From the NCBI GenBank assembly GCA_050273025.1, contig CP158635.1, forward strand, positions 12,400,001-12,464,000: a stretch of 64,000 nucleotides of DNA, given 5' to 3'. Both the position numbers and the translations under genes were made by a program. Numbering within the stretch: the stretch's first letter is position 1; every line of letters begins with the position of its first letter. Origin of the DNA: Cenococcum geophilum (Eukaryota). The notes beneath the pieces are model-generated. The model was not told the DNA's origin. It was given only the letters and a program-made list of their open reading frames with translations, and made no database searches. Shown piece after piece: positions 26,184 to 64,000 of this stretch.

Positions 26184-26259
26184 AACGACTAGCCAGCCAA
26201 CACTATAAACGATTCGATCGATTGATCGAATTAAGGTAGCACAGACAGGTAGGCACAAA

Positions 26260-26680
26260 CAGGTAGATGCTAATGGGTAGGTAGATGTAGACAGATAGGC
26301 AGATGCAGATAGGTAAGCAGATATAGATAGGCAGGTAGATGCAGATAGGTAAGTAGATGCAGATAGGCAAGCAGATATAGATAGGTAGGTAGATACTAAC
26401 GGGTAGGTAGATGTAAATAGGTAGGTAGATATAAACAAGTAGATATAGATAAGCAGGTAGATGCAGATAGGTAAGTAGATGTAGATAGGTAAGCAGATAT
26501 AGATAGGTAGATAGATGCTAACGGGTAGGTAAATATAGATAGGTAGGCAGATGTAGATAGGTAGGCAAATGCAGACAGGTAGATGTAGATAGGTAGGCGA
26601 TGTAGATAGGTAGGTAGATGCAGATAGGTAGGCGATATAGGCAGGTAGGTAAGTCAATAGGTACAGTAGATAGGTAGAAG
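26260..26680 (+). repeat. Degenerate purine-rich (GTAGATAG/GCAGAT) simple repeat
   Basis: Low-complexity AGAT/AGGT/GCAG array. Confidence 0.85.
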
Positions 26681-35200: not shown

Positions 35201-35293
35201 TTTAATTAGAATAAGGGAGGGCGAGGAGCTTAAGGCTCCTCGCTACGCTAGTGCCGTGGCGTTACGTAATAACCGCTTACCTCATTCCCGACA
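29264..35293 (-). mobile_element. Ty1/Copia LTR retrotransposon, full length (6030 bp), RIP-inactivated
   Basis: 167-bp LTRs at 29264-29430 and 35127-35293 (TG...CA); 5-bp TSD ATTAT. Minus-strand order is gag zinc knuckle (~33330), protease (DTGA-like, ~32920), pre-integrase H.RF.H (~32530), integrase, RT (KSRL.IQGYND; KPLYGIAEAG, ~30880) and RNase H (DGSF.NNKD.SSQLGY, ~30290), which is the Copia domain order. Confidence 0.93.
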
Positions 35294-38200: not shown

Positions 38201-41200
38201 TTAAGACGGACTATAAGAACCTAATAGGATTCCTTATAATAAAGGAACTTAACTAAAGATAGGTTAGATAGGTGGAGATACTTATAAAATACTATTTTAA
38301 GATTTAGTATACTAAGGGTATAGATAATATATAAGTAGATGCTCTAAGTTATAAAGCTAAACTACAAAATAATAAAAAGCTATTAGGGGCTTTACTGCAA
38401 AAAGATATAGATGGATTAATTAGATATAACTATCCGAAAATTATAGTAACTTAAGAGGAGTTAGAAAAAGTCTACAAGATACTAGAGAGCTTTTGGGTAT
38501 AAAGAATTCTAGAGGTATAACTAGAAGATCTATAAATAGATATATATAAAAATTAAGAAATGAAGTATATCCTAAGAAGCATAGTAGAGCAATTTATAGA
38601 GGACTTCTATAAGGGAATAACTTAAGGACATAATAGAGCTACGGGCTTAGTGTTAAGACTCTAAGAAAAGTACATTATTAATAAAATCTAGGGACTAGCG
38701 TAAAAAGTTATAAAGGAATATTTAGATTGCTAAAGAAATAAACTAATAAGGCATAAGCTATATAGAGGGCTATAACCTATTAAAACACTAGAGAGACTAT
38801 AGGAGGTTATATTATAGGACTTTATTATTAAGTTACTAAAGTTAAGAGATCCTATTACTAGATAAGATTATAACGCGATTTTAGTAATAGTAGATAAGCT
38901 TATAAAGTGGGGATACTTTATAGCATATACAGAAGAGATATTAGTAGAAGATATCGCTAAAATCTATATTAAAGAAGTATTCGCAAGATATAGAGCATTA
39001 AGTAAGATTATATTAGACAGAGATCTAAGATTTATAGTAATATTTTAGGAAGTGTTCTTAATAGAGTAAGGAGTTTAAGCAGTAACTTCCACTATATATT
39101 ATCCGCAGACAGACGGTTAAATAAAAAGACTAAACTAGACACTAGAGCAGTATCTAAGGCACTATATTAATTACGTATAGAATAATTAGGTATTATTATT
39201 ACCAGTTATATAGTTCGTATATAATACGACACCTTAAGAAGAAATAGGTATATTACTATTTAAGGCAAATTACGGATATAAGCTAAGAATATTATTATTA
39301 CTATAATAAGTGAAGAAGATAAGTAGTATAGCTAAAGAAAGAATAAAGACGTTAATAAATCTTTATATAGACCTTAAGGAATTAGTAAAAGGAGTATAAG
39401 AGAGAATAAGAAAGTACTATAATGCTAAGAGATCTAAGGGACCAGATCTTAAGGAGGGAGATAAAGTATAGCTACTACACAAAATTTTTAAGAGTTAACG
39501 ACTAAGTAAGAAGTTAAACTACGTTAGACTAGGACCTTTTAAAATTAAGTAAAGGATTTCACCAGTTACGTTTAAGTTAAACCTACTAGCTAAAATAAAG
39601 ATCTACCCTATATAGCATATTATAATATTAGAGCCAGTATATAGGAATATTAAGCCACTAATTTATAAAGCGGACACGTATAGAGGACAAGAAGAAGATA
39701 AATAGCAAGTTTTAAAGATTATTAGTTATAAGGACATTAATAACAAAATATAGTATAAGGTTAAGTAGATAGGCTATATTAAGACTACCTAGGAACTACT
39801 AGAGAATTTAAAAAATACTATAAAAAAGGTATAGGAGTATTAGAAGAAATTAGGTTAGGCAGCATTAATAAAGAAGGATTACTAAAGAATGAGTTACCTA
39901 AGGGGGACCTAAGAAGAGCAGTTACCGAGCTATTTGGACCTATTTCCTTCTCTATTGGAAGAGAATCTATTCTTTTATTACTAAGTTCCTATAAACCTTA
40001 TTTTATAAGTTTTTACTCCTTAGAATAAACCTTTTTACGCACCTTCTTAAAATAGATTAACTAAGTAGACGCCGTAAGACGAGACTTAAGGGCCCGTTGC
40101 TAAGCATCGGCAGCCTCCCGTTTAGCGTCCTAAGAACGGCGCAATTTAGCAAAAGTAATAGATAGCTTATTATCTAGCCGCATAGCAGCAAATTAAATAT
40201 AAGACCCTAAAATAAATTAATTAGGGAACTAGACAACTATTAAGAGTAATAGGTTATATATATTTAGCATTAAAGATAGAGCGAACGTTATAGGACAAAT
40301 AAATATTTGCTTTAGTGCACTTTAAGTAAGAAAACGGTTGTTATAAAGATAGGTTCGCCAATATAATATAAACCAACCCCTCTTTCAAATAGCAAAAATA
40401 TAAAGACGGTATAATCTTACTAAGAGACAATATTGTAGCGATAGTGCGAATACGACAAGCAGTTAAAGAAGAAGAAATTGCTTTAGGTATAATAAGCAAT
40501 AATATTAACTAAATTAATTAGACGGATATTACACCTCTAGTAAACAACTTAGAGATATTAAAAATCTTTAAGGATAAAGATAAAAAGGAGGGAGATAGTG
40601 TTACGGACGCTTTAAGTATAATATTATAACTACTTAGGGAAGAGTTGGAAGAAGCTAGTTGGTTAATTTAAGCATAGTCTAGGATAGAGCCGATAGAACT
40701 ATATGACGAGGAATAGTAACTAAGGTTATATGGGGTAATCTATATAATCTATAGGATCTATATAATCCATAATAGAGTAGATAGAGTATACGTATATTAT
40801 ATATAAGAAGGATTTTATAGGAGTACAGTTGTGTATTTAAGGACCCTTAATCCCTACCTAGATAGTTCCTTCCTTATAGTAATTCTTAGAATATAATTAG
40901 AGTTAATCTATTAGGTAACCACTCCACTAGTTATTATTACGTTGTTAACTTCTATACTTGCATTACCTATATACCTAGCCCAATAATAAGCCTATTGTAG
41001 TTCCTGCTATAAGGTTCCGTTATATATAGCGTCTTAAAGATAAAGTTCTTATACTTATTTTAACTTTTTAGTTAAAATATTATGCTATTAAAATCCTTAG
41101 CAATCTTATTAAACTTATTAAGGTCTTAAGCTAGAGCTAGCCTTTTATATAATAATATACTTCTAGGCGTAGAACTCTTATTCCAATATCTTTCCTAAAG

Positions 41201-43740: not shown

Positions 43741-44372
43741 ACTCGTGGATATTATTAAGAGTAAGCCGTATAGAGTCGTACAGCTTTAACGGGAGTAGGT
43801 TAAGAGCTGTAGTGGAGGTAGGGAAAGGTAAGGCAAATGCAAGGTATTAATTTAGGTATAGACGCGCACTAGATGTAAACAGGTTAAACGCATGTGATGT
43901 TTTAACTTTAAGTGGAAGGGTCTAAGCCTTTTTAGGCAGGGGTGTACGCATATCAGTTAGGGGGCGCATTAGTGATTAATGGCGCCCTAAATTAAAAGGC
44001 GTATTTGCTGCGAACGGTAGGAGGCTAAGCGGATTTTCTCGACCTATTACAGCCTGTACGAGCTTTGGCTTCTCCCCCCCCCTGGCGCGCAGCGGTATAT
44101 ATCTAATTTCGCTAAACCTGCAGCTAAATTAGTATGTAGGGCTAGTAGGAAGAGGTGTAGTGTGTGGCCCTGGCTTGGGCCACTAGAGCCACCTCGAATT
44201 TGAAGCTCAAATCTGAAGCTATTCGTGACTTGCCTCCCTTACCAAAACCGTGATATTTGCTCCAGATTGTGGTGTATTAAAGCTTCTTTCTCTCCTTAAT
44301 ATAAGCTCCAAACGTATAGCTGCTGCCTCTATTAGTAGTCCCTCTGGCCGCCTACCTATATAACGATTTCAA

Positions 44373-46056
44373 ATGTCACTAATATAACCTTCCTTATTAA
44401 TCGCCCGCCCACCTACTTTGACATAAAGCTTAAGTATAAGTACGGTGGTAACTCTCCCACCTGTATATAGTAGCCAAATTGGTATACAGTTCGAGTATCC
44501 TCTATAGTCTATATACGAGGGCCTATATACGTCGCAGCAGGCTGCCTTATTTGCTATGGGTGAGCTTAATAAGATCCTAAACGATCTAGCAGCTGCTAAG
44601 GAGTATAATAATAAGGAAGTTTGACACTTTTACTACCTACAAGGTTATGATGCGGTAAGAGCTCCTATACAACCTCTATAATTCTTATAGTATATGAATA
44701 TAGCTCCCCTTACATTGCTAAGTTAATCGTATACTTAAAGGCCTTTGTTAGCAGAGGCCTTAACACCTAAATCTTTAGTAGAGAGGGAGGAGAATTTGGC
44801 TCTAAGGCTTTGAATAGAATAGGAAGAGCAGCTGGCCAAGCCTTCTAGTAGAGGTTCCTTCTTTAAATATCGCCTCTTAGTAACTGCCAAGATTAAGAAG
44901 ATAAATCGCTTAGATTATTTCCTAACTTATACATTTCCTAAGGCTCGCCTTTATCTCTTAGTTATATATAACCGCGAGGTTCTTCCTAAGGTTAATAAGG
45001 CTCTGCAGCGGAAGTACGCTGGCTGTACTTTTATAAGTAATGGGTGTAATAGTATTATAAAGGTTCTTAGGCGATTAAAAGGCTCCTCTAAAGCTACCTT
45101 CTAATTTAATCCTAGCTATATAATAGATTGGCTTAATTCCGAGAGTGAGCTTATAAGGCTAGCGAGAGCCTATTACGATTGCCCTAGTGACATAATTAAG
45201 AAGCTTAAAGTTAAGCTTACTCTTAAATATATTAAGACTATAGGATAGTAAGCTCCTTATCCCTTTGGCCGCTCTTTTATAATAATATAATTGGCTTTAT
45301 AATTGGCTCCGGAATCCTTATAGAGCTCTCTACTAACTACGCCGCAGTATACGGCTAGTAATCTTGCGGCTTCCTCTATAGACCCTATAGCGAGCTTTAT
45401 AAAGATATTTTAAAGGTAGTAATGTTATAAGAACTGTGGTAGTAACTGGTGCTAGGTGTATTAGTAAGTCAACTATAGGCTTATATAAGAGGATATAAAG
45501 AAGTGGGCTTAGGTAATGGATAAGGGCCTTACTACTAAATATACTCCTCCCGTTAAGTTAATATAGAAGCTTTTTAATAAGAGGATAAGTAGTAAGAAGA
45601 AAGAAGAGCTTACTACTAAGGCTTCTATACCTAGTACTCTAGGTGTAGTTAATTAATTCTATATTAACCCTATGGGTAGTTACTATAGGCGCCTATCTAT
45701 ACCTTTAGCGGCCTCTCTCTTAAGCCTAAAGTTGTTGCTAATTGCTCCTCTACCGCGCGCTTAAGGCCTTAATCGGCTTGCTAATTTACGGGAGTAGTAT
45801 AAGTAGGCAGTATAAGAGTTAGAGGACTGGTAGGAAGATATTGAGGCCGTATATTAAGTGGTATTTAAGAAGCGGTGGGACTTAAAGATGATTTAAGAGT
45901 AGAAGCTAAATAAGTAAGGAAAGACGCTAATTAAGGTAATGATTGAGGTAGGCGTTCTAGAGGCAATTACTAAGAGATTATAAATAGATATCAAGGAGTG
46001 GAGGGCTTTGAGAGGCCTTAGTGGTAGTAACTTTAAGAGCCTTACACTTAATTAGT
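44373..46056 (+). pseudogene. RIP-inactivated ORF of unknown function (about 560 codons) with a C-x3-C-x4-C-W-x6-H motif
   Basis: Appears to be one frame broken only by stops that revert to Gln, Trp or Arg. De-RIPed core C..NCG.NWCWV.QQVNHRL.QED.KKWAQ.MD.GL.T..TPP. Confidence 0.55.
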
Positions 46057-46789
46057 AGTAGATTTTTTAACTTAAGCCTATATCTGCTTATAGGCACCTA
46101 TTATAATATATACTTTACTAGTAATCCTTATATAAATTGTATATTGTAAGTATAGAAGGTAGCTATACTAAGCTTTATACGTAAAGATACCTTACTCCCC
46201 CCTACTAATATAACCGCTATGGCGGAAATAGGCTCTTGCGCTCTTACCTTTGCCTCCTACTACCTCTATATACTAGCTTAGAAAGCTTTTAAAGCTATTA
46301 CCCTATTACTTTAGCGCCTCCTTCTAAGAAATAAAGTATTGCCGAATAAACTCCTTTAGTTTACTCTATTAAAAAAGAAAATGGAGATTTGACTGCCGTT
46401 TTTGGAGGGTTCTGTCGCCATTTTTGGAGGTCACGTTACTAAAACTCCCCACCGCCCTAAGCCTTTTGCTTACCGGTCTAACGTTAAGCCTCTCACTTAC
46501 CTAGCCTGTGCCCCGTTTTTTACAGGCAGACCAGTTCATCCAGAAGTATAACCCTTTTACGCGCCTAGCGCTGAACCTATATATACTCCATAGCTCCTAC
46601 CTCTAATCCGTTTAACCTAGGCCCCGTTTCTCTTATTCTTTACCCTCCTATCTCCTTAACCCCACATTACTCTCTATACCCTTTCCGCTGTCACTACCCT
46701 AAGTTCTCTTCTAGCTCCCTAAAATACGGCGCGCTTAATTATTAAATTGCAGCTTATTATCCAGCGTTACTAACAATAAGTATATAGAT

Positions 46790-49185
46790 ATGGATAGCGA
46801 CGGTAATAGCTACCGGATAAAACTAACCGTCCTCGATAGTAATACCGACAGCACTACTAAATCTAAAAATGCTTACGAAGTATCCGCTCAAGCATGGCTT
46901 TATAAAAATTAAGACCATCTACTAGAATATTACCTCAAACAGTTAGAAGAGTTTAAGAAATCTAATTTTACGACGCAGAACTACGCCGATGCCACTATAG
47001 CTCTCCTTAACCGCATTAAAGAACACTAGCATTAGTAAGTAATAACCTATTTAGCGGCTTCTTCTTAGGCCTAACTTAGCAGAGAGCTAATAATTTCTAG
47101 ATACTGCACCTATATAGGGAAAGACCCTAAGAAAACGTACCGAGTCCTCTCGCTTCGGCTCCTTTATAGCTTCTTTAACTAGTCCCTAAACTAGAAACGA
47201 GGAAAAGGTAGTAGAAAATGGTGCAGGACAAAGGTTTCTAGCTCGCTTAGCCTATACTAGAAGTACTATCGCCTTATATACAAGAGAGCGACCGAAGGGA
47301 AAATTGTTAGTAAACTAAACCGCTAGATATATAAGGTAATTACATTCCTAGTTAATCCTTTAACCTAGTAAGGTAAGGCAGAGCTAAGATATCTTTCTTA
47401 GGTACTTTAGAAACTGGCGGAGAAACATAGTCTAAGCAAAAAAAAGTAAGAAAAGACTATTATAGACGCGGAGGATCTCGCCCTAGTCCTTAAGACTAAC
47501 TTAGTTACAATAAGGAAGCAATATATAGTTAGACAACATTAGATATAAGTGCATTTCTTAATATAACTAGGTCTTTACACTGCGAGCTGACCTAAAGCTC
47601 TTCTAAACCTATGCTACTAACATATAATAATTACACTTATTTATAACCTAGAAGGCGGGCCTTATAAGATCGTGCCTAAGTTTATATTTGAATTTACTAA
47701 GGAATATCTTAGCATGAAAGAAGCGTATATTCCCTTTCTACCCCATTCCTCTCCTTACGCTTACAGAGAACCAGTAATACTTTCCCAATTCCTAAGATTA
47801 TCTTTAACCCTTCGCTTATTCTTAGCCCTTACGTCTTTCTCCTAGGCCTTCTTTTTACGGACAAAGCTTTTACGGCCCCTAATCTAACGTCCGTAGAGCA
47901 GCTTAGCAAGCTATATATTAAGCCTAGGCGTAATAAGTTGCCACTACCACTCCGTTTAGACCTAGATAATATCCCTATATTTTGGCGATTAATTAAAACC
48001 CCCTACGGCCATAAGGTCTTACTTAACTAGCCTTTACTATACTTAACTCTTTTGCCCTAGATTAAGGACCTTAGCGCAATTACGGGATTTTAGTAGGTTA
48101 CGCGCCTATATAGTCTCCATTACGGCGTAGGCAAGGCATTTAATAAGAATGGTAAGTTCTATTATATAGAGCTAGTTCTACTAAAACCTTTTTAACGCCT
48201 ATACTACCTAGGTAACGTAAGTAACGCCTTCCGGAACCTAATAATATAGTACGCCGACGCTCAAACGTTCCTAAAGCACTACCTTTCGCGGCGTGTTAAC
48301 GTAGATACATAAGTAATCGTTTAAGGCTTAGAGCCTTAAGAAAAGTTAATAAAAGTAGTATACTAAATAAGCCGATTAATTAACCCGCGGCGGCCACAGC
48401 ACCTAATAATAAAACAATCCTTATTGGTAAACGAGAACCCGCGTATTCGTTCCTTAATCGAAGTTTAAAATAAGCTAAAGCTTAGCCTTAAGCGCAAAAC
48501 CGCAGGAAGTACAGAATACCAAAAGCTTAGCCGAGAAATCACAAATAAAAGGCAACGTTAGAGAAATGCGCTATTAGAAAATATTAAGAAGAATTAGGAC
48601 AACGAACAAGCTATAATTAATATTAAGCGGCAACTTTCTAAAGTTACATTTAGCAAGGATATTAAAGCAACCTTAAAATCTAATAATAATAGATCGGCCG
48701 AATATAAACGCCTTATTAAAGTGATTATAACGCTACCTGGCACGTCACTAAAAGATAAGATATGCAGACGCAATAATGCCATTAATGCAGTTATAGATTA
48801 CTGCAATATTAAGAAAGGCAGAGCGTATCGGCTAAGTCATTGCCAGAGACAGTCTAGGGTAGGTGTCGCCCTTAGCTAAGTTAAGATTAAAGAAGATGCC
48901 AAGATTTTAGAAGCGGCTAAAGCGCTAGAGAGTGCAAAGTTATCCTTATTTAAGGAGAAAAGACCAAAGATATACTTTATCTGCCTTGGGAACCAAAAGC
49001 TACTAATTAGCAAGCGCATATATAGGTTCCATACTCCAACTACTTTTACGAAGCATTTTTGACAAGCGCATCTCTCTAAACTCCTATAGTAGGGTAAGAT
49101 CGAATATAACGTTTGCGAAGTAACCCTTAAGCATAAAATGCATCTTTAGAACCATACGCTTAGTATATATGGGACCTTTTCCTAA
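46790..49185 (+). pseudogene. DUF3435 tyrosine recombinase (Starship captain), RIP-inactivated, intron-containing
   Basis: De-RIPed: DHPPEYYLKQLEEF..., SSLGLYWKYYRLVY, TASRPEALLNLCY (first catalytic R; CGA>TGA at ~47588), FEFTKEYLG, IIFDPSLILSPHVFLLGL, RPYSLRYGAG (~48105), LMMQHADARTFLKHYLSRR (catalytic Y, ~48280), MSRSIDPRRP, and C-terminal CFICLGN...KHF...H...C.VC...HLQNH...HG. An upstream exon is possible. Confidence 0.88.
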
Positions 49186-49305
49186 TTATTACGCGCTTAT
49201 CTTATTATTCTTTACTACTTTTTATTTCATTTTAGTCTGTTATTATCCAATCCTATTCTAGTATTTAGTAGAATAGATGTAATAACTGGGATTTTATAAT
49301 TCGTC

Positions 49306-49423
49306 TGGGGGGGCAAGGGGTAATAGGTGAGGTAAGGGTAAGAGTAAGGTAAAGGATAAGATAAAGGGTGGGGTGAGGGGTAAGAGGTAAGGGGTAAGGG
49401 GTAAGGGATAAGGGGAGGGGAGG
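49306..49423 (+). repeat. G-rich (GGGGTAA-like) degenerate repeat downstream of the captain
   Basis: Runs of GGGGTAA/GGGTAA/GGGGAGG. Confidence 0.75.
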
Positions 49424-49789
49424 CTGATAGGAGATAGATAATACAGTTGCTATATAATATCTGACGGACCGACTATAGACGAGATATACATTTAAATTTC
49501 TTAAATCAACCCAAATAGAGAAAGGAAGAGAAGTATTATATAATAACTTCCTACCTAAGCCGATCTCCTAAGCTATATATCTTTACTTATGCATAATACT
49601 CGCACCTTTTATAATAAAGTATATAAGGGTAATTAGGGTCGAATAGATAACTGCTCTCCTTAATATAATATATAAACTCGGCTTTGCAACCAATATTACG
49701 ATAGGTCCTAGTCGTATAGAGGGTATTAAGACAGTTATTAATGTTTTCGCTTTTACGCTTAGCCGCGGCGCACCTCGCCTTGGCGGATT

Positions 49790-50740
49790 AAAGTAGTAAT
49801 TTTATTTATTATAGCTAGGATTAAACAGCTTAAAGTTTCTGTGTGAAATTTTCCTCTATATCCTTAGATGCGGTAATCGTTGTCCGTATAATACCGATAG
49901 CGAAATCGCTTATAACGTCTAGCTCTGTGAAGTCCTTAAGTTTGATAAGCTCTTTAATGTGCTTGGCCGCTGTTAAGGTAATTATATTATATAATGCTAA
50001 GTCGCCTATTAGGCTAAAGACATCCTTAATAATATTAGGGAACCCATTTGCAGACCAGCCGGTTCCTAGAATGTATTGGATTTTTATATTCGCAAGCTCT
50101 TTTAGCTGTGGTATATTGTAATAATCGGCAATTATATTAATATAGACGTGGCGAAGTATAATATAGGCCGTTGTCGGCCGTATCGTTGTGTCTTTATTAT
50201 CGCCACCGCTACTATTTAGTTTAGATGGCGATAAGGCATCGGCGTTGTCGAGTTACGCTACCTCTAATTCTATAGATTAAAGCTTAAGTACGGATAAATT
50301 GGATTAGCGTGCGAATATATCCCTTACCTTAGCCGAGCTTTTCCATACTTATAATATTGGATTTTTGCTCCTCCTTGCCATTATTATAGTCCCTCTTATA
50401 TATAAATTGGATTATTCTCTTAACGGTACCGGAATTGAACTCGTTGATATTTATAATATTAGTCGCTACCTCCTACCCGTTAGTGAGTTCCTAGTTAGGG
50501 TCAATTTCATTAGATGTTTGGTTGGCTTTTACCTAAAAACCTCTATTATAGGCAGCTGTAAGTACAGGAGATTAGGTGCATATAATTACTTTATAGACTT
50601 TAAACTCTAGCCCCTGGTATATAAGTTTTAAGTCGCTATATTTCTCGCTGTCTATAAGCTACGCTAAGCCGAGTAGAACATTTTTAGATAATATATTTTA
50701 TTAGTTTTCTTTTCTAGTTCTAGTTTTAACTGCGTCTTGA
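49790..50740 (-). pseudogene. BTB/POZ-domain protein, RIP-inactivated
   Basis: LIDSEKYSDLKLIYQGLEFKVYKVIICT*SPVLTAAYNRGF* / EVATNIINI.EF...TV.R.I.F.Y..DY ... LRHVYINIIADYYNIPQLKELA, a typical fungal BTB protein. Confidence 0.8.
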
Positions 50741-53699
50741 GTAATATTTAAGAGTGTAATTTAGTATTAAACAGGACGATTAAAAACGAGAACTCTGCTT
50801 TATTAAATATGGCTCTAGAGCCTCTATATATATATTAAGAAGTCATTATTAGCTTTGTCTAATCTGCGACAGATTTAGTTAATTAGTTAGAGCTTTAAAT
50901 ATTAATCGCTTAACTAAGGACTAATATAACTTCTAAAGTTATAGGTCGATATTTGGCTTATATATATGCTAAGCATTTTTTACTACCTCTCCACCCGGAT
51001 AAAGCCAGTCATATGACTAGAAAAACCCCACTATTTATATCTAGTAAAAGTATGGAAAATTACAAGGTAATAAATAAACACTATATAAACGTACGTGGCG
51101 GCTATAGGTAGAGGAGCGTATATTGCGGTAAAGGAAAAAAGGCAACTGTATTTTAGCCTAGTTAGCCTATAGGCCTTATAACTCTGCCAGTAAGCCCTAA
51201 ATTTCGTAATAGTAAACGGAACCTAGGCTTAATATAGTTAGCTATTAGCAAAGCAATGTTAAAGCACCTACTTAGATTTAAGATTAAGTTAATTCTCTAA
51301 GGAATATAGGGAAGAATCCGATTAGTTCTTAGTAGGAAAGGCTTTTATGGTATAGAACCTTAATTAAGGCTTATATTAACTTATCCTAGAAATCTCCTGT
51401 CTGTCTAGTTTAAGTAATTAATTCGACTCTTTAGGGATGCGATGCCGAGGAGGCTAGTATCTTATGATGAAATAGGGTAATTATTATAGGCTTATGACGA
51501 AGAGAGCGATATAGAGCTACCTGTAGGATAAGCCTATTGGAACGTAAAGAGAACTGGTAAATAGAGGTAAACGCGGGGTTAGCGCACCCGGAAAGGCACT
51601 AATATAGTATCGTTATATAGGCCGACCTATTGTCATATCTATAACTTTATTGGCTATATTAGGAGAAGGTAGAAGCGGAGACTAGTGGTGTTAGCCGGTT
51701 TTATATCGCTAGCGGTTAATTAGGTTGATGTAGTTAATATAGTTAATATAGTTAATAGGGTTAATAGGGTTGACGCGGTTAATAGCCCTACTTTAGTAAA
51801 CGGCACTCCGCGTAGTAACACTAACTTTTTATTTTAACGCCACTACGTATAATAAGTCTTACCGCTAGATCTAAAGCTAGTAATATATAGGCTGTTGCTG
51901 GACATTCCAAAACTCAATGGAAGCGGTTCCTGGTAAGCAGGGATATAAGTATAGCCTCAACTCTTAGTAATAAAGATTGGCAGATACTTATATAAGAAGA
52001 AGCTAAACGACTTCGCTTATTATATTTAATACGCTTTGCTTAGTTTAAGGTTTCTATAGACAAATAGAAGGAGCTTCTAGAGCGTTTAAACAAGCTGCTA
52101 GCGGCTGAGAGTATACCCTAGATAGCTACTAAAGTCCTTAATTAGCGTATAGCATAAGCCGTTAGGAAAGCCTATTGTTAGTTTTGTTGTATTATAGTTA
52201 GAATACTTATACTAACTTAAGTTTTAGCTTTATTAAATGTAGCGTCCAGGGAGGAAGCAAGTGAATCAATTAATTAACCCTAGGTATCGACTAAGTAATA
52301 TAATCCTATAAGAGATATAGACCGGTAACCTATATATTATAGGCCCTATAAGACGTAAGAGTAGAGGGGTGTCGCTTAAAAAGGTTGTTTTAGTTTTCTA
52401 AGTAGTTTATATGTCGACTCTAGCAGTGCCCCCACTTTTAAGTCTTCTTACTTAAGGAGGCTTATTTATACCGGACGTTATTAAAGAGATTAGGCTTTTA
52501 AAGGGTTAATGGGGAGATAAGGAGCTAGATAGAAAACGTTTATATCAATCCCTAACGTTAATATATATGGTCATAGCTAAGGTGCGCATATAGACAATAT
52601 ACCTCGTTTCGCTGCTATATACCCTATAGTACCTATCTTATATACTATACGAATGATGTAAACCGGCGATCAATATATAGGCTATAAGACGCGTCGTAGA
52701 CGAAATAGCATATGCCTTACGACTTAACTCCCTCCTATTCGTTAATATAAGACGTATATCTAGCTCCTACGCATAACTAGGACCGAAACTAAGCCCCGGC
52801 ATACAGCCCTATACTTTAAGCCTATTACTTAGTTTGGGGTTAAGAGGATATTAGTATAATTTAGCACTTTAGTACTTACCAGCTTAGCTATCCAAACGCC
52901 TCTATACCTGCAATGGCCTGCTAATAAATTTTTTTGTAGGCAATTAGCGTTTTGTTCTCGTTTTCTAGGTTATTTAACGCCCCCAATTTTAGACCTACGT
53001 ATACTTTCGCACAAATCTCTTTACTTTTCAATATTTTTAGTCTTTTAATTTGTCTAAGTTAAGGTCAAGAATACGGCATATGGTTAATTAAAGACAGTTA
53101 TATACTCGGCTCTAAGAACACTCCCCTAGCGTTTCTAATATCCACGAAATCGTATCCCCAGCAATGTGTTCTATGTGTAATATATAGAACGATTACCAGT
53201 CTTTATGTGTAAGTTTTTGTAGCTTTATATATTACAGCTAATCTAGCTTCTAACGCTAAAATAGAGTGAAATCAGTGACGACTGGAAGAAGGAATTTGAA
53301 AGACAACGCGATATTATTTACTCTTATTTTAAAGACTATAGGTTAATAACGGATAATAAAGAAGATAAGGCTTTCTAAAACCTTATTAATTACTACAACG
53401 CTTATAATAATCTAGAGAAAGTTTAATATTTAAAGGAGATGCTGCTTAACCTCGATCGGGGTAAGACTTAATAAGAGATACTTACTAAGAAAATATTATA
53501 GGAAGGATAGGAGATATTAAGATATGGAATTTAGATATACTATAGGCCTTAAGAAGCTCTTGGATATGACTTAGTAATAATATAGCAGTGCTTAATAGAT
53601 TATCTCCCCCGTTATAACTGAATGTGTAATATAACTTTTATTTATCTTTTAATTAACGCCTAGCGTGCAAATAAGATATTAATAGGTAAGCTAGGCGAT

Positions 53700-53955
53700 T
53701 CTATAAGCTGGGTAATCGTGCGAGCTGGGTGATTATACGAGCTAGGTGATCGTGCGAGCTGGATACTTATAAGAGCTGGCCGATCCTATAAGCTAAGTAA
53801 TTATACAAGCTAGGTAACTGTGCAAGTATAGTGCTTATAGGAGCTAGGCAATTCTGCGAGCTAGGTAATTATACAAGCTAGGCGATTATGTAAACTAGGT
53901 GATTGTATAAGCTAGGCGATTATGCAAGCAGGGTGATTATATAAGTAGGGTGATC
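53700..53955 (+). repeat. Degenerate ~20-bp tandem repeat (GAGCTAGGTGATTATAC-like)
   Basis: About 12 units visible. Confidence 0.75.
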
Positions 53956-55919
53956 TAACCTAGCGCCCTCTATTAACGCCTAGCATGTAAATAGGAAGCA
54001 GATATTAGGAAGATACTAAAACTATAAAAAAAAGAAATATATAAGTCCTAGATCTAAAAATATTAAAAAAGTTCCTATATAAAGACCCCTTATATATACT
54101 TAGAGAAGTTCCTATATAAATAGCCCTATAAGCGTAGCTATAAGTCCGAGCCCTTTCGCGTAACCTAACTACCCCTCCCTACTATACCGGAATAGATAAA
54201 CAACCGCTGTGTACTATAAGCAGAGAAATAATTTAAATAAAAAGAAAACACTATAAAAAAATATGTTTATATCCTTAAGATATAAATCTATAAGTACCGT
54301 AGTCTTAAACACGACTAATAGTTGCTAAGGTGGTATACGTCCTAGGTCTATAAGAAATTCAAAAAATCCTAGGTCATTAGCATAGATTTGCCTACTATTA
54401 TCGCTTTTAAGGTAGTAAATAAATTTATCTAAGTAAAAGCATAGATTATTGTAAATGCTTTATAGCTTACTATAAGTCAAGCAGGCAGAGACTCTAGTAG
54501 GAATAGTAAAATATTGTTTTGTTTCGCGATAGGCTAAACAAAAAAAGGCTAAAGTTTTAACCCTTTTACCAGCTTTTATTAGAAATCTTCTTTATATTTA
54601 TATCCTATACTTATAGATTTAAGACTATAAAGCTAAGGCCACCGTATTTAACCGTCGCCTATATAGCCTTATCACTTAATATCTCTTTATTGCTGTCTGC
54701 CCCTATTTCTTTATCTTTAGTGCTAAAATCATTTTCTCTGTTATATAATATCTCTGCGTCCTATTCTTAATCCTTATTACTAAAGTTACTTTCCCAACTA
54801 GCTAACGCCTTTACGTTGCCGTTATCTCTAAAGTCGGTTTCTCTATCTATAAACGCCCACTTACTAGCTAATAATTTAGGGACGTTGCGCTTATAGGTAC
54901 TTAGGGTTATAAATACCACTTAAGAAGAAATTATAGTTAATGTTATTAGGATATAGAACAAGCCTATAGACCTCTAAGTACTGGCTACTTAGCGCTTTAA
55001 GTAAAAGATCTCCCCTAACGCAAGGCAGATTAATAGGAGTTAATTTACTACCTATATAAGGCGGAGCGCTTATAAAGGGCTTAGCTAGAATAGTAATTAA
55101 ACCACCTTAAAGGCACTAATAGCTTCTTTACTATAGATAGGGGGTTAATATATGAGATTAACTGGCTAGGATAAGTTTACTGCTTAGGTAGTATCTTGCC
55201 CCGGGAAGGATAGGCGTCGGAAATAAATTATATAATGCTATTCCTACTAAGAGAGGCGTTATTAGGGGTTATTGTTAACTTCTAATTCCAGTTTATAACT
55301 TTATGTAAACGCTTCTAAACCCTACTAAGGCATACGGCGTCCGTTAGGGATCGTCAGCTATTTAAGTTTAGCAGCAGCTTAGCTAATAGCTACCCCCAAC
55401 AATGCCTTACTTGTAGACTACTTTAGGCACCTATAGTTTTAGGCGCAGACAATACGTAAGCTAAGAGTAATCATAGCTACTAAATATTGTACCACAAACA
55501 CTATATAAAGTGGAAAGGGGCGGCTAGTATATTTTGCCTTTCCCTTCTACCTTCTGTCCTAACTCCGCCTTAGGAGAGAAATGGAATATAAATATTATGC
55601 TCCTAGTTCTTATATGCCATTAATTTAACTTACCTTTAAATCTGACCTCTTAACCATATATCCCTTACCATCTTTATAAGAATACTAGATATTATATATA
55701 TTACCTTAACTAAGCTTAGATATATTACTAATATAACCTATAGGTCCTCAATTAGTGCTTATAAAAATATTATAATATGCTATCGCCCTAAAGATAATAT
55801 ACCTAATTATTAACCTACTAGAAACCTTAAATTATCTTAAAATTGCATTAATAATAAAGACACGGTATCTGGTAGCGGGGAGGAGAAACAATTGTAGCTT
55901 TCCGACCCTATGTAGAAAT

Positions 55920-57320
55920 AGATGCCTTATATACCTGCTTAAACACCTAATAAGGCCAATTCTTATGAAAGCGACGATAATACAAAGGGCGATATACAAG
56001 GGGATACGGTTTGGGGAGGTGTATAAAAAATATACCTCAATTATCTTAGGGGATTGGAAGGCGGCGAAACTAAGATAGACTTACCTAAGCTAATGGAGGA
56101 CCATGGCGAGGCCAAAATAGACTCGCCTTAACTAAAAGAGAACTATGTTAAAGGCTTATCCCAGCAGATAAATATAGTCGTGGGTTCTAAATATATTTTG
56201 CCGGTACCTAAAGGTATATTTATAAGACACCTATATTATTTAGCAATACTAATAATTAAGTAAAGAATGGTTTAGTCCCTATATATCCATCTAAAGTGTT
56301 AACAATTTCCGATGCCAAGATTTTAAGCGGATAAGTAAAGTATCTTATATCCTAGTTACCTACTTATTATATAATAAAGGACATAACACGTTTTCGAAAC
56401 CCTAGTTATAGAGAAATCATATCTTTATACGGTCCTATCGTAGTAATATGCTAGTATCCTACCTGGGTTTTAGCGGTGGCTATACCGCAAAAGAAACTTT
56501 TATTATACTATACTAAGAATCCTTATCACCTCCGCCGTTATGCTAAGATATATAAACCGCTTAAAGATATTATAATTGAGATAGCTAAGAAGGGTAAACC
56601 GTATAAGTAAGGAGATTAACCAGGATAGTAGTAGATGCCCTCTATACCTGCTTATATAACTAAGGAGGTTAACTTTTATAAAATCGACGATAATATGGAG
56701 GGTGATATATAAGAGGATACGGAAATGTATGCTAATTACCTTAAGAGCCTAGAAGGCCGTAGCAAAACCAAAACAGTCTTACCTAAGCTAATAGAGAGCT
56801 ATGGCGAGGCTAAGACAGACTCACCTCAACTAAAAGAGGTTTATATTAAAGGTTTACTAGTGCCTTTAGGTATGTTTATAAAACACCTATATATTATTTA
56901 GCAATACTAATAATTAAGCAAAGAATAGTTTAGCTAATCCTATAAACTTCCTTGGAGATATACCTCCCCCAACTAAAGTGTTAACAATTTCCGATACTAC
57001 AATTTTAGACGGACAACTAAAGTATCTCTTATTGTAGTTGCTAACTTGCTATATAATAAAGGACTTAAAGCGTCTCCAAAACCCTGGATATAGATTAGTT
57101 GTATTTACATATAGTCCTATCGCAATAGTATCCTAGTATCCTACCTAGGTTTTACCCGCGGGTATACCGTATAAGAGACTTATATTATACTATACTGAGA
57201 ACCCGCGTTACCTCTATCGTTATGCTAGGATATACAAACCGCTTAAAGATGTTATAATAGAGATAGCTTAAAGGGGTAAATTATATGAGTAAAGAGATTA
57301 ACTAGGAGAGGCGCCAGATG
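55920..57320 (+). repeat. Tandem duplication (~700 bp x2) of a degenerate coding segment
   Basis: Units start GATGCC.T.TATACCTGCTTA at about 55921 and 56634 and share ACACCTATAT.TTATTTAGCAATACTAA, CTAAAGTGTTAACAATTTCCGAT and AAACCGCTTAAAGAT. Confidence 0.85.
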
Positions 57321-58755
57321 ATCATTTAGAAGATCTATTAATAAGAGGGACACGTAAAAGAAAGGTAGATTGTACCATAGATGGAGCCTCTAAGAAGCCA
57401 AAGAAATGAGAAATTTCTTATAAGAAAAGATTTTCGCAATTATATTTATGTTTTCTGGCGCTAAGAATTAAAGCGCTAATTAGGATTTCCTTAGCTCGGT
57501 ATTGTTTTTCTATCTAGTTGCTTCTATATTAAGAGTATTTCATTATTGTTTGCATATACGTTAAATTAAAGTTAAGAACTCGCTTATAGTAAGCTTATAA
57601 GTCCTCCACCTTTATATGCTTAGTAGCGATAAGTTAGCCGCCCTGTGACTTGCTTAGTCCTCCATAAAGAATTAAAGTTAAGGTATTAAAGTCTTTAGCG
57701 TTTTTGTAGGTAACTAGGGTACGGGTTAACTCTAAATTTCATATTAATAAGGTAGGAATGTTAAGGATAAATATAGGATATCTCTCTTAATATTGAAAAT
57801 GGGATCTTATTCTAAGAACTGGATCTAATTCTAAAGACTATATCCTATCCCAATTCTAAGCTAAACGTACTAAATGTAGCCAAAAAGGTATAGCGTTAAG
57901 CCAAGCGGTTTAATGGTCTTGGAAGAGAGAAGCTATTTTTAATTATAGCTTAAGTTATAATTCCGGGAACGGAATCTAATTCTAAAACCAAGATCCTGAT
58001 TTGGGTTCATAAAGTAGACCAATTAACTACTGTAAAAAGGGCGCAATCTTAAAAAAGGATCCGGTTTTAAGAACTGGATCCCGGTTACGGAAAACAGGTC
58101 GATTACGCGCTGTAAAATAGGGTTGGCTATATCTATATTTAGCATATTAGGTTTAGCTCGTTTTAGGACCAGCTATATAATCAATCGTAGGTGCTTATAC
58201 AACCAACCCAATAATTAACCCGCTGTCGCCAGCTGTACCTTACCTAGCGCCTTTTAGCATCGCTGCATTAGAGCCTTACTCTATTTAAGCCTTACGCGTC
58301 ACGGAATAAACTAAAAGCTGATAACCACGATTACTAATAAATGCTGCCTATAACTTTCTAATAATACCAGAACCCTATATACGCACTATATTTTTAATCT
58401 ATACAACTAAGACTACAAACGATGTTTCCTATACTTTGGGTTATTATAGCTTAGTATTTAACTAAGCCCTATAAAGCCTCGGTCTAAGCTATATTAGATT
58501 AGCTTAACTTTTCCGCACCTAATCTTTAATCCTCTGCGTGTTTACTCGCACCTTACTTCCTTCCTCACACTTTTCTCCCTAGTTATTTTCTTATTGCAAG
58601 ACACTACTAACGTGTTCTCGACCTTCCTATACTTATTTAATTCTCTACTATTATACCGTCCGTTATATACTAGCCTCTTTAATCTCCCCTTCTTACTTAC
58701 CTATTTGCCTGCCATGCCGGCCACCCTAACATAGCTTTTATTGCGTTTGCCTACA

Positions 58756-61143
58756 ATAGTAAATCTCTCTAAATTAGAGATAATCAAAGCAAAACCTATT
58801 AGGGAAGGACTAAATAACTTTCGCGATTTATTTAACTTAACTTATTAGAATTTAGGTATCTTTAGCTCTTTAAACTTGTTACACCAGATAGGCGATAAAG
58901 GTAATTATTAATTAGTCTACTATAGGTCCCGTTTAACACATATAGGGCTTAAGAATCTCATTGTTAACCTTATTTTAGCATTATAAAACCTTTCTACTGC
59001 TTAACTACTCCCGTCTAGCGCTGGCCGCGGCACTCTTTATAGTGACCTTCTCCGACTCCTCCCTTCGGTTAATTCTGATAACTTTAATATTAAATAGTTC
59101 ACCCCTCTTCTAAAAACAGTTCTTAATTATAAATTAGATAAGGACGTTTAGAGTAAAACTATCGCCACCGTCACAGAGCCTACGCCTCCCCCCCGACCGC
59201 TACTATTCTACATTTAAACCCCACATCTACGCAATATAAGCAGCTTCGCTAACTTGTCTAAATATAGAAAATACGTAGATAATATTTTAAAGGAGGAGCT
59301 AGACCCTCTTTATGTGGGGATTCCTAGCTTATACAAAGCATTTTTTAGGGAAGTGAAAGGTCTTAAAAAGGCAAGCGCCGCCGTTTTTAAGAAATGTAAG
59401 GAAGGGGATAATCCACTATACGCTAATAAGGGCGGCTAGCGTAACTAGCCTAAAAGCGTAGAGTAAGATAATGTCCTAGAGTGGTTTAATAACCTAATTA
59501 AATTATTTTTAGGCTTTATAGAGGAGTATGGGTCCGCCCTAAAGATATAACAAAAGCTCATCGCATATACTAAGCAGCCTTTATAAGGGTTTACGGCGAA
59601 GCAAAAGCTAGATATTGGTTTTGTGGATGATTTAATAGCTAGCGAAGGCTCTTAATGCCATTAGTTATATATACTTGTGCTAAGAGAGCTAAAGAGTAAT
59701 TTAAATACTAATATAGCCTCGCAGGCATGGTTTGCTTTAGGGAAATATATAAGGGAAGTCTTCGCCGCTTAGGACAATTGTCGCTTTGTCCTAGGTTTTA
59801 CCCTCTATAGATCTATTATATAGCTATAGGAGTATAACCAGGTAGAAGGTATCGCATTATTACTATTTAATATTAATAAAGACGGACTACAATTTACCTC
59901 GGCGATATTAGGGTTTCTCTTAATAAATAAAGAGCAGCTCGGGTTTAACCCTACCATTTTAATATTAGACGGCAAATAATATATTAAGGTCGTACGCAAC
60001 AATTAAACTGAGTGTCTTATCCTTAACAAACTTATAAAGCGGGCACCCTACATTACTGGTCGGGCGATAACTTACTAGAAAGCGCACCGTAAGGGTGACA
60101 CCTTTAAGATACCTCTCGTTATTAAAGACTCGTGGTAGTACCTAGAGCGTAAAAAAGAAGGCGAACTGCTGCGTAAGGTAGCGGAGAAAGGAGTAATTAA
60201 TATAGCCAGGTATTATTACCATGGGACTATTTATATAGGTAGATAAGATAATAACATCTTTAATATCCGTAAGGGGCTGGATATTACTAAAGCGACAAAC
60301 TATAAGCCTAAAAGCTTAATAGTACCTCTAAGCGTAGCTGGAGTGCAAGGCAGTATAAGGAAAGGCCGAAGCACTAGTAAAAAAAGGTCGTCTAGCTATA
60401 CTAACGCCCTATTACCGCCTAACAAGCGCCTATATTTAAGCTCTCTAATTAAGCGCCCTATTATGCAGAATCAGGTGCATTAATGCGTCATTACTTACGA
60501 CTATAGAAAGGCTCTTTATAAGGCAAGCTCTCCGGTTGCAATGCTTACTGCGTTAAAGGGTGGCATTAAAGGATATAAGTCTTTATATACGTAGGCTGGC
60601 ATCCTCTAACGTGACATTTTAATAGGCAACCTCTTAATAAATAAGGAAGACGATAATCCCTCCTAGAAGTCATTCTTAATCGATCTTAATCTTGCGATTA
60701 AAGAGAAGTAAGAAGGACCTTTGGGAGTATAGGGCAAGACCGGTATAAGAGCGTTTATAGCTATAAGAGTGCTTCTAGGCGAGAAACACTCCTTTAGGCA
60801 TGATTTGGAGTCGTTTTTTTAGGTGCTTTTCTGGATATACGTATACTATAATAGGCTAAGTAAAGATATCGGTCTAACTAAGTTTAAGCGTTGGAACTAT
60901 AAGAATACTACTAAGTTGGCTAAGTTAAAATCGGGGCTAGTAAACAGGGAAGGGCATTTTCTTAACTATATAGCTAAGGCATTTATACCTTACTACCAGC
61001 CGCTAGTCCTGTGGGTTAATAAGGTATAGAAGGTAGTTTTCCTAATAGACGGGAAGTAGGAGAAGGAAAATAGGGCGCTTTATTCCTAAATAAAAGAAAT
61101 TCTCTAGCAAGTATAGAAGGATCTAGAAGTGTTAGCAGAGTAG
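58756..61143 (+). pseudogene. FunK1-type fungal protein kinase (Pkinase_fungal), RIP-inactivated
   Basis: TPPPRP..TP.LRN.SSFAN.S.YRKYVD.ILKEEL, KLDIGFVD, ILV..ELKSN, RFVLGFTL, LGF.PTI, GRA.T.WKA, VIKDSW*Y.ER..EGELL, GIL*RDI.IGNLL, FLIDL.LA, KTG.RAF.AI and HSFRHDLESFF*VLFWI. One intron at about 58901-58946. Confidence 0.9.
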
Positions 61144-61457
61144 ATAGAATAACATTTCATTATCCTATATTCTTCTACCGTATGAGTTAAAGTTTTATAG
61201 AGATTTGGGCGGCTAAGGCTAGGTAGCAGCCTTAATTAAAACGCATATAAAATAGCGTTAAGTAAGTCGCCTAGGCTAAATAAAACTTAGGAAAGCGGAT
61301 AACCCAATCTTCCGCTAGATTATTAGGTCCCTACACCCCATTATCCTATATAGGCTTTATTTTTCCATAAAGCGCATAATCCACTCTCTAGCCTATTAGA
61401 AGCCGCTTTATGCCGCCTAAATAGAGGCCATAAAAGAATTAATCCCATCTTTTAACC

Positions 61458-61740
61458 AATCCCCTACTTAAATAAGTCCCCTACTTAAACAAATCCCCTA
61501 CGGGAGCGATTGCCTATGTGTTTCGCCGCCCTATAGGAATTAGTCCCCTACTCTAATAAATCCCCTACAGGATTTAGTCCCTTACTTTAACAAATCCCCT
61601 ATACCAATAAATCCCCCGCGCTAATAAATCCCCTACTCTAATAAATCCCCTGTGCTAATAAATCCCCTACTTTAATAAATCCCTTACTTTAATAAATCCC
61701 CTGCGCTAACAAATCCCTTACTCTAACGAATCCCCTATAG
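61458..61740 (+). repeat. Tandem AATAAATCCCCTAC-type repeats (~17-20 bp units)
   Basis: More than 10 degenerate units. Confidence 0.75.
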
Positions 61741-64000
61741 GTGCTAATGCCTACGTGTTCTACCGCCCTACGGGAACTAATCCCTTGCGGCTTGCACTCC
61801 CGTATAGCTTTTGCTCCCCTACAGGAGCCCACAGCCACGTTTTCCTCTCCCCTATGGGAACTAATGCCCTACGGCTTCCGTTCTCCTATTCCTAGATCCA
61901 CTAGCAATTCGCCCCCGCTATGGCCTACTGTATAGGCCTTATTATTATAGGAGTAAGCAAGTATATATACTTATGCCCCGTATAGGAATGAAAGCCATTT
62001 ACGCACTAGTTACCCGCAATTGCGGTTTTAGGAGGGCAGTAGGCACCTTGGGTTATCTAGTTATATTTATTAGAATGCGGGCCTATAACTATAGAAGACA
62101 CTATTGCTTATATAGAAGTACCACAGCTGCTATAAGTATTGGCCTAGCCTAGTATATAAATCTAAACGCGAAAGGAGGCGCGGTAGCCTAGGTGGCTTTA
62201 TTAAGCTCCTGTATATATATCTCCAATTACTCTAAAGCTTCCTTTCCACCTTCTATAAACGCTATATTGCTAGAATAGGCTCTAGACCTTATCAATACTC
62301 CCTTATACTTAAATTCCGCTAGAATTACTCTGCTACTATGGTAGCTAGGTTTACCTAAAAAAAGCCGATTAAACAAATTATGTATGGGAACCGCAAGCTA
62401 GCGAATATTGGGCACAATATATACAATGGCGATAATTTTACAAATCTTTAAGATATTAGGGACCTGCTTACCTAATATATAGGCAATTACTTACCTTTAC
62501 CTCTCTTAAATTTTCTTCTTTCTATCCTATATAGGAGACCTTTCCTCTTTTCTTCCTTAAGGATAGTTTCCCCTACTATTGGAACCTAATAGATTGAAGT
62601 TTTGCCTATATTGGGCGTATTTATTATAGGGACAGGTATCTAAGGGTAGTAGTTAGATTATTAATGATATAAAAGGGGTGGGTTATATACTGCTTGCCTT
62701 TAGCGGGTGTATTATAGTTACTAGCCTTTAAAGGTCTTTAAAGGTCTTTAAAAGTCTTTAGAGGTCCTTAGAGGCCTTTAATGGTCTTTTTATATATTAG
62801 TTGGTGAAATACCAAGCAGAGGTCATACATATATGTCTATAAGGCCGAGCTATATAACAATTCTTATTGGAGTAACGAGAGCGTACGTAGACTTAAGCTA
62901 GGCTGTAAATGATATAAAATGCGAAGTTGCGCGTAAAGGTAGCCTAAATCCAAATCACTAGACCGTATAAATATGGGAAGACGCCACTCGCTCTACATTT
63001 TTATTCTTATATATAAAGAAGTTCCCGCTATATACTATAGGTGGTGAAGATTAGTAAAGGTCTTAACCTAACTCGGGGTCGCTAAATAGCAAGGAAGGGG
63101 TAAATAGATATATTGCACCCCGGCTTATAAAACTTAGGTATATTACCCCTTGGCTACCCTAGTTACCTAACTGCAATAAAAGCTTATAGATATGCATAAG
63201 ATAATAATATTCTTAACAGCCCCCGCCCCCAATCGTCCTTAGAGAGATATTTAGAACTACTTCTTTTCCTAGCCCAGTTTACGACGTTTAGATTAACCCC
63301 TAATATGGCAACTATTAAATTTATCTTATAACTTATAGACCTTGCTAAGAAGCTTAAACGGGTTATTAAAAGTGTCCTATGCTCTTACATGCATCCTACA
63401 AAAAGCAACTATTGGACAATTAAGGATTTAGGTATAAGGCTTTTCAAAGCTATAGAAAAGCTCCCAGTGGAGATTAAAGCACTTAAAAAAAGACGTACAG
63501 AGTCGGCTTATAAGGAGGGCAAATAGCGGTTAAACCAGGCACAAAAGAATAGAAAAGACACTATTACTAGTTCGAACTTAAAGAATCGAGGGATATTCGC
63601 AAAAAACATAGCACTTTTCTTTAGCGGTCTAAAGGATTTGGTCATTAATTTGGACGTAACTTAAATAAGGAAGCAGGCGACCTAAAAAAGGTGCGAGTGG
63701 ATTTATAGCCTAAGTCCTAACGGGATAATTTCCTAGGTAGCGGCCTTTAACCCTACCGTATAGACGGCAAATTTGATATTAAAGGATATGTTTGACTTTG
63801 TGGTCGAGCGGATTGACCTAGAGGATATTTAGGTGTGGCTATTTAATATATATTATATACTAAATGGTTTGGGAACTAAAGAGCCGTTATAAGAATTCTA
63901 AAAATATTATAAGTTCCTAAAAGGTAAGGTCTACTTTAGCGAGAACTTTTAAGTATAAAGCTGACGGCTACTAGCCGCTATAGAAGATAGGGAAAAACCT

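Follow-up and report, generated by a model that had tools for sequence, protein, structure and literature searches.

DUF3435 proteins are the recombinase family of Starships (PMC8092012, PMC13465315), elements of tens to hundreds of kb that are expected at low copy number and whose recombinase gene is known as the captain (PMC11162782). A survey with the starfish program found bounds for 559 elements and left 10,212 recombinase genes as "solo," whose nature it did not decide; copies degraded by repeat-induced point mutation (RIP) were termed "derelict," and CryptonF recombinases served as the outgroup to captains (PMC11162782). The genome of Cenococcum geophilum, described from a telomere-to-telomere assembly, is reported as 78% transposable elements (TEs) and 73% RIP-affected (PMC12910237). 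Literature searches, with supplementary tables outside their scope, returned no description of recombinase elements in Cenococcum, and in the Cenococcum genome paper the word "Starship" occurs in the reference list only. The DNA considered here is a 64,000-nucleotide stretch of C. geophilum (contig CP158635.1, positions 12,400,001 to 12,464,000, forward strand), referred to as the window, in whose final 18 kb lies a DUF3435 captain pseudogene.

Our reading, to which we give a probability of about 0.58, is that ~46.3–54.14 kb of the window is a RIP-inactivated ("derelict") copy of a compact, ~7.8-kb, multi-copy DUF3435 element, and that 54.14–64 kb consists of other repeat families. A sequence-only reading of the window had proposed an element killed by RIP whose first gene is an inward-reading DUF3435 captain, and this much is retained; it had also extended the element to the window edge as one giant Starship-like unit with more than 14 kb of cargo. 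Its observations are largely right; its interpretation names the right kind of element and misjudges how far it extends. The parts of the captain element are as follows, where L001 is a second long copy from a metagenome and X1 and X11 are two of four public runs or isolates, all described below:

46080–46400, no strand: zone in which the high-copy captain element has its left end, from a contig end and a depth step.
46395–46408 and 46417–46430, plus strand: two copies of GCCRTTTTTGGAGG, 22 bases apart, exact matches.
46764–51052, plus strand: 5′ module A, common to the window and L001 at 82.7–84.5% nucleotide and 97–98% purine/pyrimidine identity.
46790–49185, plus strand: DUF3435 tyrosine-recombinase (captain) pseudogene, full-length, with three introns, from Pfam, HMMER and alignment to relatives.
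49850–50720 (limits approximate), minus strand: BTB/POZ-domain pseudogene, convergent with the captain, with the Pfam domain at 50371–50655.
51053–53685, no strand: middle specific to the window copy, a lower-copy family (~40x in X1, 10–40x in X11), with no match in L001.
53686–54143, plus strand: 3′ module R, a 17-bp tandem array (53688–53949) plus ~190 bp, from L001 homology and depth.

Like Starships such as Enterprise (with Kirc) and Hephaestus (with HhpA), this element has the DUF3435 gene first, near the 5′ end and reading inward; a zinc finger in the captain, as in Kirc; probably at least one passenger unrelated to transposition, here the BTB gene; and AT-rich, TE-rich surroundings with RIP inactivation (PMC8092012, PMC11162782). 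Unlike them, it is small (~7.8 kb in the window; ~13 kb in L001, plus a nested long terminal repeat (LTR) element), and its family stands at tens to hundreds of copies by summed contig depth. With the "solo" Starship-type genes it shares a DUF3435 gene without demonstrable large cargo, the commonest case in the starfish survey (PMC11162782). It differs from them in being a repeated unit with a conserved BTB neighbor and a candidate 3′ module. CryptonF elements are DNA transposons with a tyrosine recombinase, compact in size and present in many copies; their genes have introns, terminal inverted repeats (TIRs) are absent, and a C-terminal GCR1_C DNA-binding domain is typical of their recombinases. 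Compact, high-copy behavior is what the window element has in common with Cryptons, but the C-terminus of its captain is C2H2-like, the DUF3435 profile is covered from position 2 to 418, and there is a second gene (BTB); GCR1_C (PF12550) was found neither in 44–64 kb (Pfam, E ≤ 0.1) nor in any of eight intact relatives (E ≤ 0.001). As a compact high-copy captain element, it would be a variant of the known Starship kind.

For the domain content of 44–64 kb, six-frame translations with stops read as X were scanned against Pfam at E ≤ 0.1. Four matches were obtained, to DUF3435 in two frames, to Pkinase_fungal and, weakly, to BTB, and nothing beyond these three families. The DUF3435 profile (PF11917) is matched with E 1.7e-73 (248 bits; profile 212–418, window ~48211–48802, plus strand) and in a second plus frame with E 1.1e-11 (profile 2–92, window 47471–47744); together the two frames cover profile positions 2–418 over window 47471–48802. 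When the gene is aligned with six intact relatives of 561–783 amino acids, its start falls at the ATG at 46790, with the N-terminal motifs following, and its stop (49183–49185) aligns with the C-terminal "VHGTVS-stop" of the relatives. The three introns, all GT..AG, are at 47035–47079, 47336–47368 and 48152–48211, the last of them visible as a 20-residue insert in the alignment, and there is an additional frame change at ~47.75–47.80 kb.

The captain is dead. Its box I Arg has become TGA (47588–47590), the box II Arg is a His (CAT, 48118–48120), and the conserved catalytic His is a Tyr (TAC, 48250–48252); the nucleophile Tyr is retained (48280–48282). At the C-terminus is a C2H2-like finger whose cysteines are now Tyr. 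The three catalytic residues were lost through C>T or G>A changes, and the changes at the finger cysteines are likewise of transition type. The sequence-only reading had placed an intron-containing captain at precisely these coordinates, had held its catalytic motifs to be recoverable by reversing RIP, and had suggested a DUF3435 profile search; the gene model is borne out by the Pfam matches, the six-relative alignment and the three introns, and the motifs by box positions that align and by the nature of the losses.

Relatives are numerous. An HMMER search of 1.84 billion representative sequences with the second half of the captain gene (462 residues) gave 813 at E ≤ 1e-3 and 57 at E ≤ 1e-30, headed by a 614-amino-acid protein with 43% identity across the entire query (E 1.5e-81). 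The long relatives are named "C2H2 finger domain" or hypothetical proteins in Alternaria, Colletotrichum, Xylaria, Nemania, Histoplasma, Blastomyces, and Beauveria, and DUF3435 is the sole Pfam domain in all eight that were scanned (E ≤ 0.001). A word-index protein search with the RIPped captain had found no match among longer proteins; this is put down to the query, not to absence, because HMMER then gave the 813 relatives.

Downstream of the captain, and convergent with it, the BTB domain (PF00651) is matched on the minus strand at 50371–50655 with E 7.3e-5 and 23.4 bits, above the cut-off of 20.5, when the query is short; with a 3399-residue query the score is 18.7 bits, under the cut-off. 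The C-terminal part of this pseudogene was read by eye from translations. Directly after the captain stop is a GGTAAG/GGGGTAA microsatellite (49318–49415), present in the same place in L001.

RIP, measured as a composite index in 2-kb bins across the window, is pervasive from 22 kb onward: the index is 0.84–1.43 in all bins of 22–64 kb (GC 28–42%), against −0.54 to 0.20 in 1–22 kb, where composition is ordinary. The signature is a high TpA/ApT and a low (CpA+TpG)/(ApC+GpT), with between-copy differences that are mainly C>T and G>A. Just two open reading frames (ORFs) of at least 80 amino acids survive in 44–64 kb. The captain region does not form an island of its own: it makes up the last 18 kb of 42 kb of RIP-affected sequence. 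From 22 kb on, RIP also hits unrelated LTR elements, and it therefore marks no single element.

The extent of the element was approached through the multiplicity of its parts. Contigs of four public runs or isolates (X1, X5, X11, and X21) were aligned to window 44000–63999 at an identity of at least 90%, and the summed contig depth was divided by the depth of exact single-copy contigs (79–101 in X1, with a divisor of ~90; taken as ~4.8 in X5; ~22 in X11; ~7 in X21). The resulting figures are rough, a summed depth not being a copy number, and little or no cover in parts of X11 and X21 was not taken as absence. In X1, a source-like run, 17593 contigs fall on these 20 kb, so that the region is multicopy, as the sequence-only reading had supposed, by a wider margin than it thought. 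They differ from the window at 397 C>T, 429 G>A, 344 T>C, and 280 A>G places, with fewer than 10 of each transversion type. Multiplicities by segment are:

44.7–46.0 kb: ~5x in X1.
46.0–51.3 kb (captain block, or block A): 54–156x in X1, 135–406x in X11.
51.3–53.3 kb: ~40x in X1, 10–40x in X11.
53.3–62.0 kb: 93–497x in X1, with a peak at 54.0–55.3 kb; 64–816x in X11.
62–64 kb: 26–41x in X1, 3–14x in X11.

In X5 the captain block is present roughly 40–150x. In X21 it is present roughly once, while the block that contains a FunK1 kinase pseudogene (block B, 54144–62000) stands at 5–20x overall, with ~20x at 54.0–54.7 kb and ~12x in the first half of the kinase. Steps in multiplicity occur at ~51.0–51.3, 53.3–54.1, and 62.0 kb and differ between isolates; the contrasts are large between neighboring, equally AT-rich bins and are consistent across isolates. 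The segments have no common multiplicity, contrary to the idea of one multicopy block, and neither the stepwise profile nor the X21 figures support one giant element running to the window edge. The bin that holds module R has 111x in X1 (block A, 143–156x), ~111x in X5 (98–149x), 184x in X11 (~330x), and ~0.7x in X21 (~1.2–1.6x); the next bin, 54005–54671, has ~497x, 430x, 672x, and 20x, respectively. The module R bin tracks block A in all four isolates, and the next bin does not.

By these figures the captain family looks to be present in tens to hundreds of copies. Sampled words of 44–54 kb are found at 62–65% in four runs under one organism label, at 9–19% in other isolates, and hardly at all in some; small shares in root and soil metagenome runs were set aside. 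Five of the 16 HMMER matches that were looked up are short C. geophilum fragments, 59–82% identical to the captain query, and these sit on three different contigs (18.86, 24.09, and 27.58 Mb), an independent sign, from sequence similarity, that captain copies may be dispersed.

The left end is located by depth. An exact single-copy X1 contig covers 45550–46077; summed depth in X1 is 523 in the bin before 46001–46667, 4863 in that bin and 7811 in the one after, a rise of about ten-fold within 46.0–46.67 kb; and the step, when interpolated from the depth in X1, X5, and X11, falls at ~46.25–46.40 kb. That the captain is the first gene follows indirectly, from a multiplicity step at 46.08–46.40 kb and a plus-strand ATG at 46790. 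The left end that the sequence-only reading had suggested, a less-mutated patch with a direct repeat, agrees with this: the GCCRTTTTTGGAGG pair is exactly as described, in a patch (46400–46699) of GC 0.47–0.48, ~360 bp upstream of the captain ATG. There is no third exact copy of the motif on either strand of the window.

The right end was sought in other copies. A metagenome scan with a transition-tolerant 52-base pattern from module A yielded two long contigs, L001 and L002, both fully RIPped and without any ORF of at least 100 amino acids. L001 1–3004 corresponds to window 46764–49725, and L001 8881–10211 to window 49716–51052; between them, a nested 5.9-kb LTR element (L001 2993–8872, LTRs ~360 bp) interrupts module A at a point that corresponds to window 49716. 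Between the two copies there are 603 transitions and 64 transversions. L001 has DUF3435 in three frames and, at the same place as the window, a weak BTB match (13.9 bits, E 0.065). A different downstream stretch, L001 18613–18954, corresponds to window 53686–54143 in the same orientation. The two copies are collinear from at least 46764 to 51052, and in the downstream stretch their alignment is near-continuous to 54143 and random straight after. Past this point L001 enters a DDE_1 (pogo-like) transposase pseudogene (19555–20052, minus strand, E 8e-30), and the window enters the block that stands at ~500x in X1. The candidate right end at 54143 that we propose comes from this stop of homology in two copies, and it may be the true terminus.

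Between these shared stretches, the 2.6 kb of the window (51053–53685) and the 8.4-kb counterpart in L001 had no shared sequence in the comparison. L001 10226–10409 does, however, match L002 6564–6378 at 98% purine/pyrimidine identity, so that these two contigs still agree beyond the point corresponding to 51052. It follows that the family extends farther, and that the window copy is the broken or replaced one. Window 51053–53685 is probably a replacement or an insertion. A loose end that appeared before 50801 in each of the four runs was considered as a further breakpoint and rejected: the loose consensus resembles the window sequence there, and the case is one of local divergence.

As for cargo, the BTB gene is in both copies, with the weak match in L001, and FunK1 with the rest of 54.14–64 kb does not accompany the captain in L001 or X21. 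L001 holds no block B or FunK1 sequence in the 9.8 kb after its module A; it shares 46764–51052 and 53686–54143 with the window and then has the DDE_1 transposon. In L002 there is a small piece of block B, in the orientation opposite to that of its module A piece. The kinase and the rest of 54.14–64 kb appear to be neighbors or insertion context, not cargo.

Putting these observations together, the element would begin ~400–700 bp upstream of the recombinase gene, which would be its first gene and read inward from the left end; the convergent BTB-domain gene would be a conserved passenger, the internal part would vary between copies, and the conserved 3′ module, a 17-bp tandem array plus ~190 bp, would close the element at 54143. 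By analogy with what is known of the family, the recombinase would have cut and rejoined the element ends in excision and integration, and in this way the captain family could have spread to tens or hundreds of copies. RIP would then have made the copies stop-riddled and AT-rich, leaving a window copy that presumably neither moves nor encodes anything, next to what would be independently amplified repeat families, FunK1 included, from 54.14 kb to the window end. A stronger version, in which one genome came to hold hundreds of copies of an 8–13-kb element, driven by a captain recombinase and with BTB as its sole passenger, until RIP killed it, we put forward tentatively, at somewhat under even odds.

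Several points weigh against the compact element with an end at 54143. Scans for TIRs and direct repeats in a transition-tolerant alphabet, comparing 46.08–46.8 kb with 50.5–51.5, 53.2–54.2, and 61.6–62.5 kb, gave none above shuffled controls for any candidate pair of ends. The left end is placed by depth and is not seen in another copy, and the copies examined are one other long copy and one fragment, both from one metagenome. Summed contig depth is no copy number, X1 may be the window's own source, and module R is in part a tandem array, which inflates its depth. Related Starships can have the captain end in common and diverge beyond it, and by that analogy the stop at 54143 could be an internal breakpoint. 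Finally, the middles (2.6 vs. 8.4 kb) have no sequence in common; a unit of 4.7 kb might truly end at 51052, with R as a small repeat of separate origin that happens to be close by. In the last case the mobile unit would be module A by itself (~46.3–51.05 kb, captain and BTB), and 53.69–54.14 kb an unrelated small repeat. In its favor, the window and L001 cease to be homologous at 51052, breaks in X21 contigs fall at 50835 and 50937, the depth of block A drops in bin 50670–51336, and the middles are unrelated. We nonetheless consider it unlikely, given that the L001–L002 match (10226–10409 to 6564–6378) carries the family on past 51052, and that both long copies have R downstream and oriented alike, its depth following that of A in the four isolates.

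A single giant Starship-like element from ~46.4 to beyond 64 kb, in which BTB, the stretches of no known identity, the duplication and FunK1 are all cargo, RIPped since they were duplicated, could explain why the captain comes first and reads inward, why the left end fits and why all downstream sequence is RIPped; blocks A and B are broadly alike in multiplicity in X1, X5, and X11, and cargo can differ among Starship relatives (PMC11162782). It is nevertheless improbable in view of the multiplicity steps (~51.0–51.3, 53.3–54.1, and 62.0 kb), of an X21 with block A at ~1x and block B at 5–20x, of an L001 without B in the 9.8 kb after module A and with homology that ends at 54143, and of the L002 fragment of B opposite to its fragment of A; and the RIP, which begins at 22 kb, takes in unrelated LTR elements. 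Least probable of all, in our estimate, is a case without a mobile element of its own, in which a heterogeneous repeat region was amplified in segmental or satellite-like fashion and a solo captain pseudogene within it was multiplied as a bystander. Most DUF3435 genes are indeed unassignable to bounded elements (559 bounded against 10,212 "solo"; PMC11162782), and terminal repeats were not found, but the block boundaries are sharp and differ from one another, the contexts of the copies differ in the window, L001, and L002, and fragments are on three different large Cenococcum contigs. The compact multi-copy element, ending at or near 54143, remains our preferred reading.

The sequence to the right of the captain element contains:

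54144–62000, plus strand: block B, other high-copy repeat sequence (tandem duplication, FunK1, 17-bp array), from depth and Pfam.
55913–56628 and 56626–57310, in block B: tandem duplication at 70% identity, from self-comparison.
~58.0–60.95 kb, plus strand: FunK1 kinase pseudogene, an open-frame-like stretch with the Pfam domain (PF17667) at 59608–60838.
61454–61737, in block B: 17-bp tandem array.
62001–64000, no strand: lower-copy RIPped repeat, 26–41x in X1 and 3–14x in X11.

The kinase match (Pkinase_fungal, PF17667; E 7.1e-92, profile 2–386 of 387, window 59608–60838, plus strand) and the minus-strand BTB match confirm two of the genes that the sequence-only reading had listed downstream of the captain. 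Its "unknown ORFs" did not fare as well: in 51–58 kb no reading frame stands out, and Pfam gave no further match. The duplicated domain stands as a tandem duplication, 55913–57310, with no coding nature seen there or elsewhere in 51–58 kb. The label of "non-TE genes" is an interpretation, and the kinase block is itself high-copy: the FunK1 pseudogene repeat (58000–60950, plus strand) is present roughly 90–250x in X1 and ~12x in X21. FunK1 genes are known to have expanded by lineage-specific duplication in non-syntenic DNA in Paracoccidioides and Coccidioides (PMC3203195). The window resembles these cases as a Pkinase_fungal gene amplified in repeat-rich, non-syntenic DNA, and differs in that its kinase copies are RIP-dead and seemingly ~90–250x in X1. 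Literature searches returned nothing that links FunK1 with Starships. The Pfam scan, in six frames at E ≤ 0.1, gave no match in 62001–64000.

Both high-copy blocks finish with an array of 17-bp period (53688–53949 and 61454–61737) a few hundred bases before multiplicity drops. The two arrays were considered as mutual inverted copies and the idea rejected, as their best agreement in purine/pyrimidine terms, 12 of 17, is the score that turned up most often in 2000 shuffles; self-comparison likewise gave no inverted match between them, and their units have no detectable relationship. A 5S rRNA or tRNA gene at an element end, as a possible target site, was also looked for and discarded, with no Rfam and no ARAGORN hit in the whole window.

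Some features elsewhere in the window are recorded for completeness. A copia-like LTR retrotransposon with minus-strand coding (29259–35293; LTRs 29259–29430 and 35122–35293, 93% identical) has integrase and RNase H motifs by eye and no Pfam match; a second copy is in L002 (398–6376, 98% purine/pyrimidine identity). A 253-bp direct repeat (22229–22481 and 40595–40847, 95% identity, 18 kb apart) surrounds most of the upstream RIP block, and the pair may represent two solo LTRs or else the LTRs of one large element that has taken up nested insertions. A weak hAT C-terminal dimerization domain (~22014–22214, minus strand, E 1.9e-4, 21.6 bits against a cut-off of 21.4) lies at the margin of this block and is the only Pfam match in 21–33 kb. 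Tandem-repeat arrays at 24478–26678 lie amid RIPped DNA; some are GC-rich (58% GC at 25–26 kb) and read as proline/arginine/aspartate-rich repeats. The non-RIPped flank has an intact 603-amino-acid ORF with a HET (heterokaryon incompatibility) domain at 436–2247 (plus strand), with relatives 76–84% identical, and window 9315–9418, also non-RIPped, matches L002 8079–8181 at 94% purine/pyrimidine and 82% nucleotide identity.

The locus itself is dead repeat DNA, in which neither the kinase nor the other "cargo-like genes" ought to be labeled Starship cargo in an annotation. If the proposed spread of the captain element is real, captain-type recombinases could act like conventional high-copy transposons, and some of the "solo" captains across fungi could be the ends of small elements, not lost giants. 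A bounded, compact, high-copy captain family would answer, for one lineage, the question of whether captains with no known cargo are solo genes or overlooked elements, and its many copies, once aligned, would suffice to delimit the ends recognized by the recombinase.

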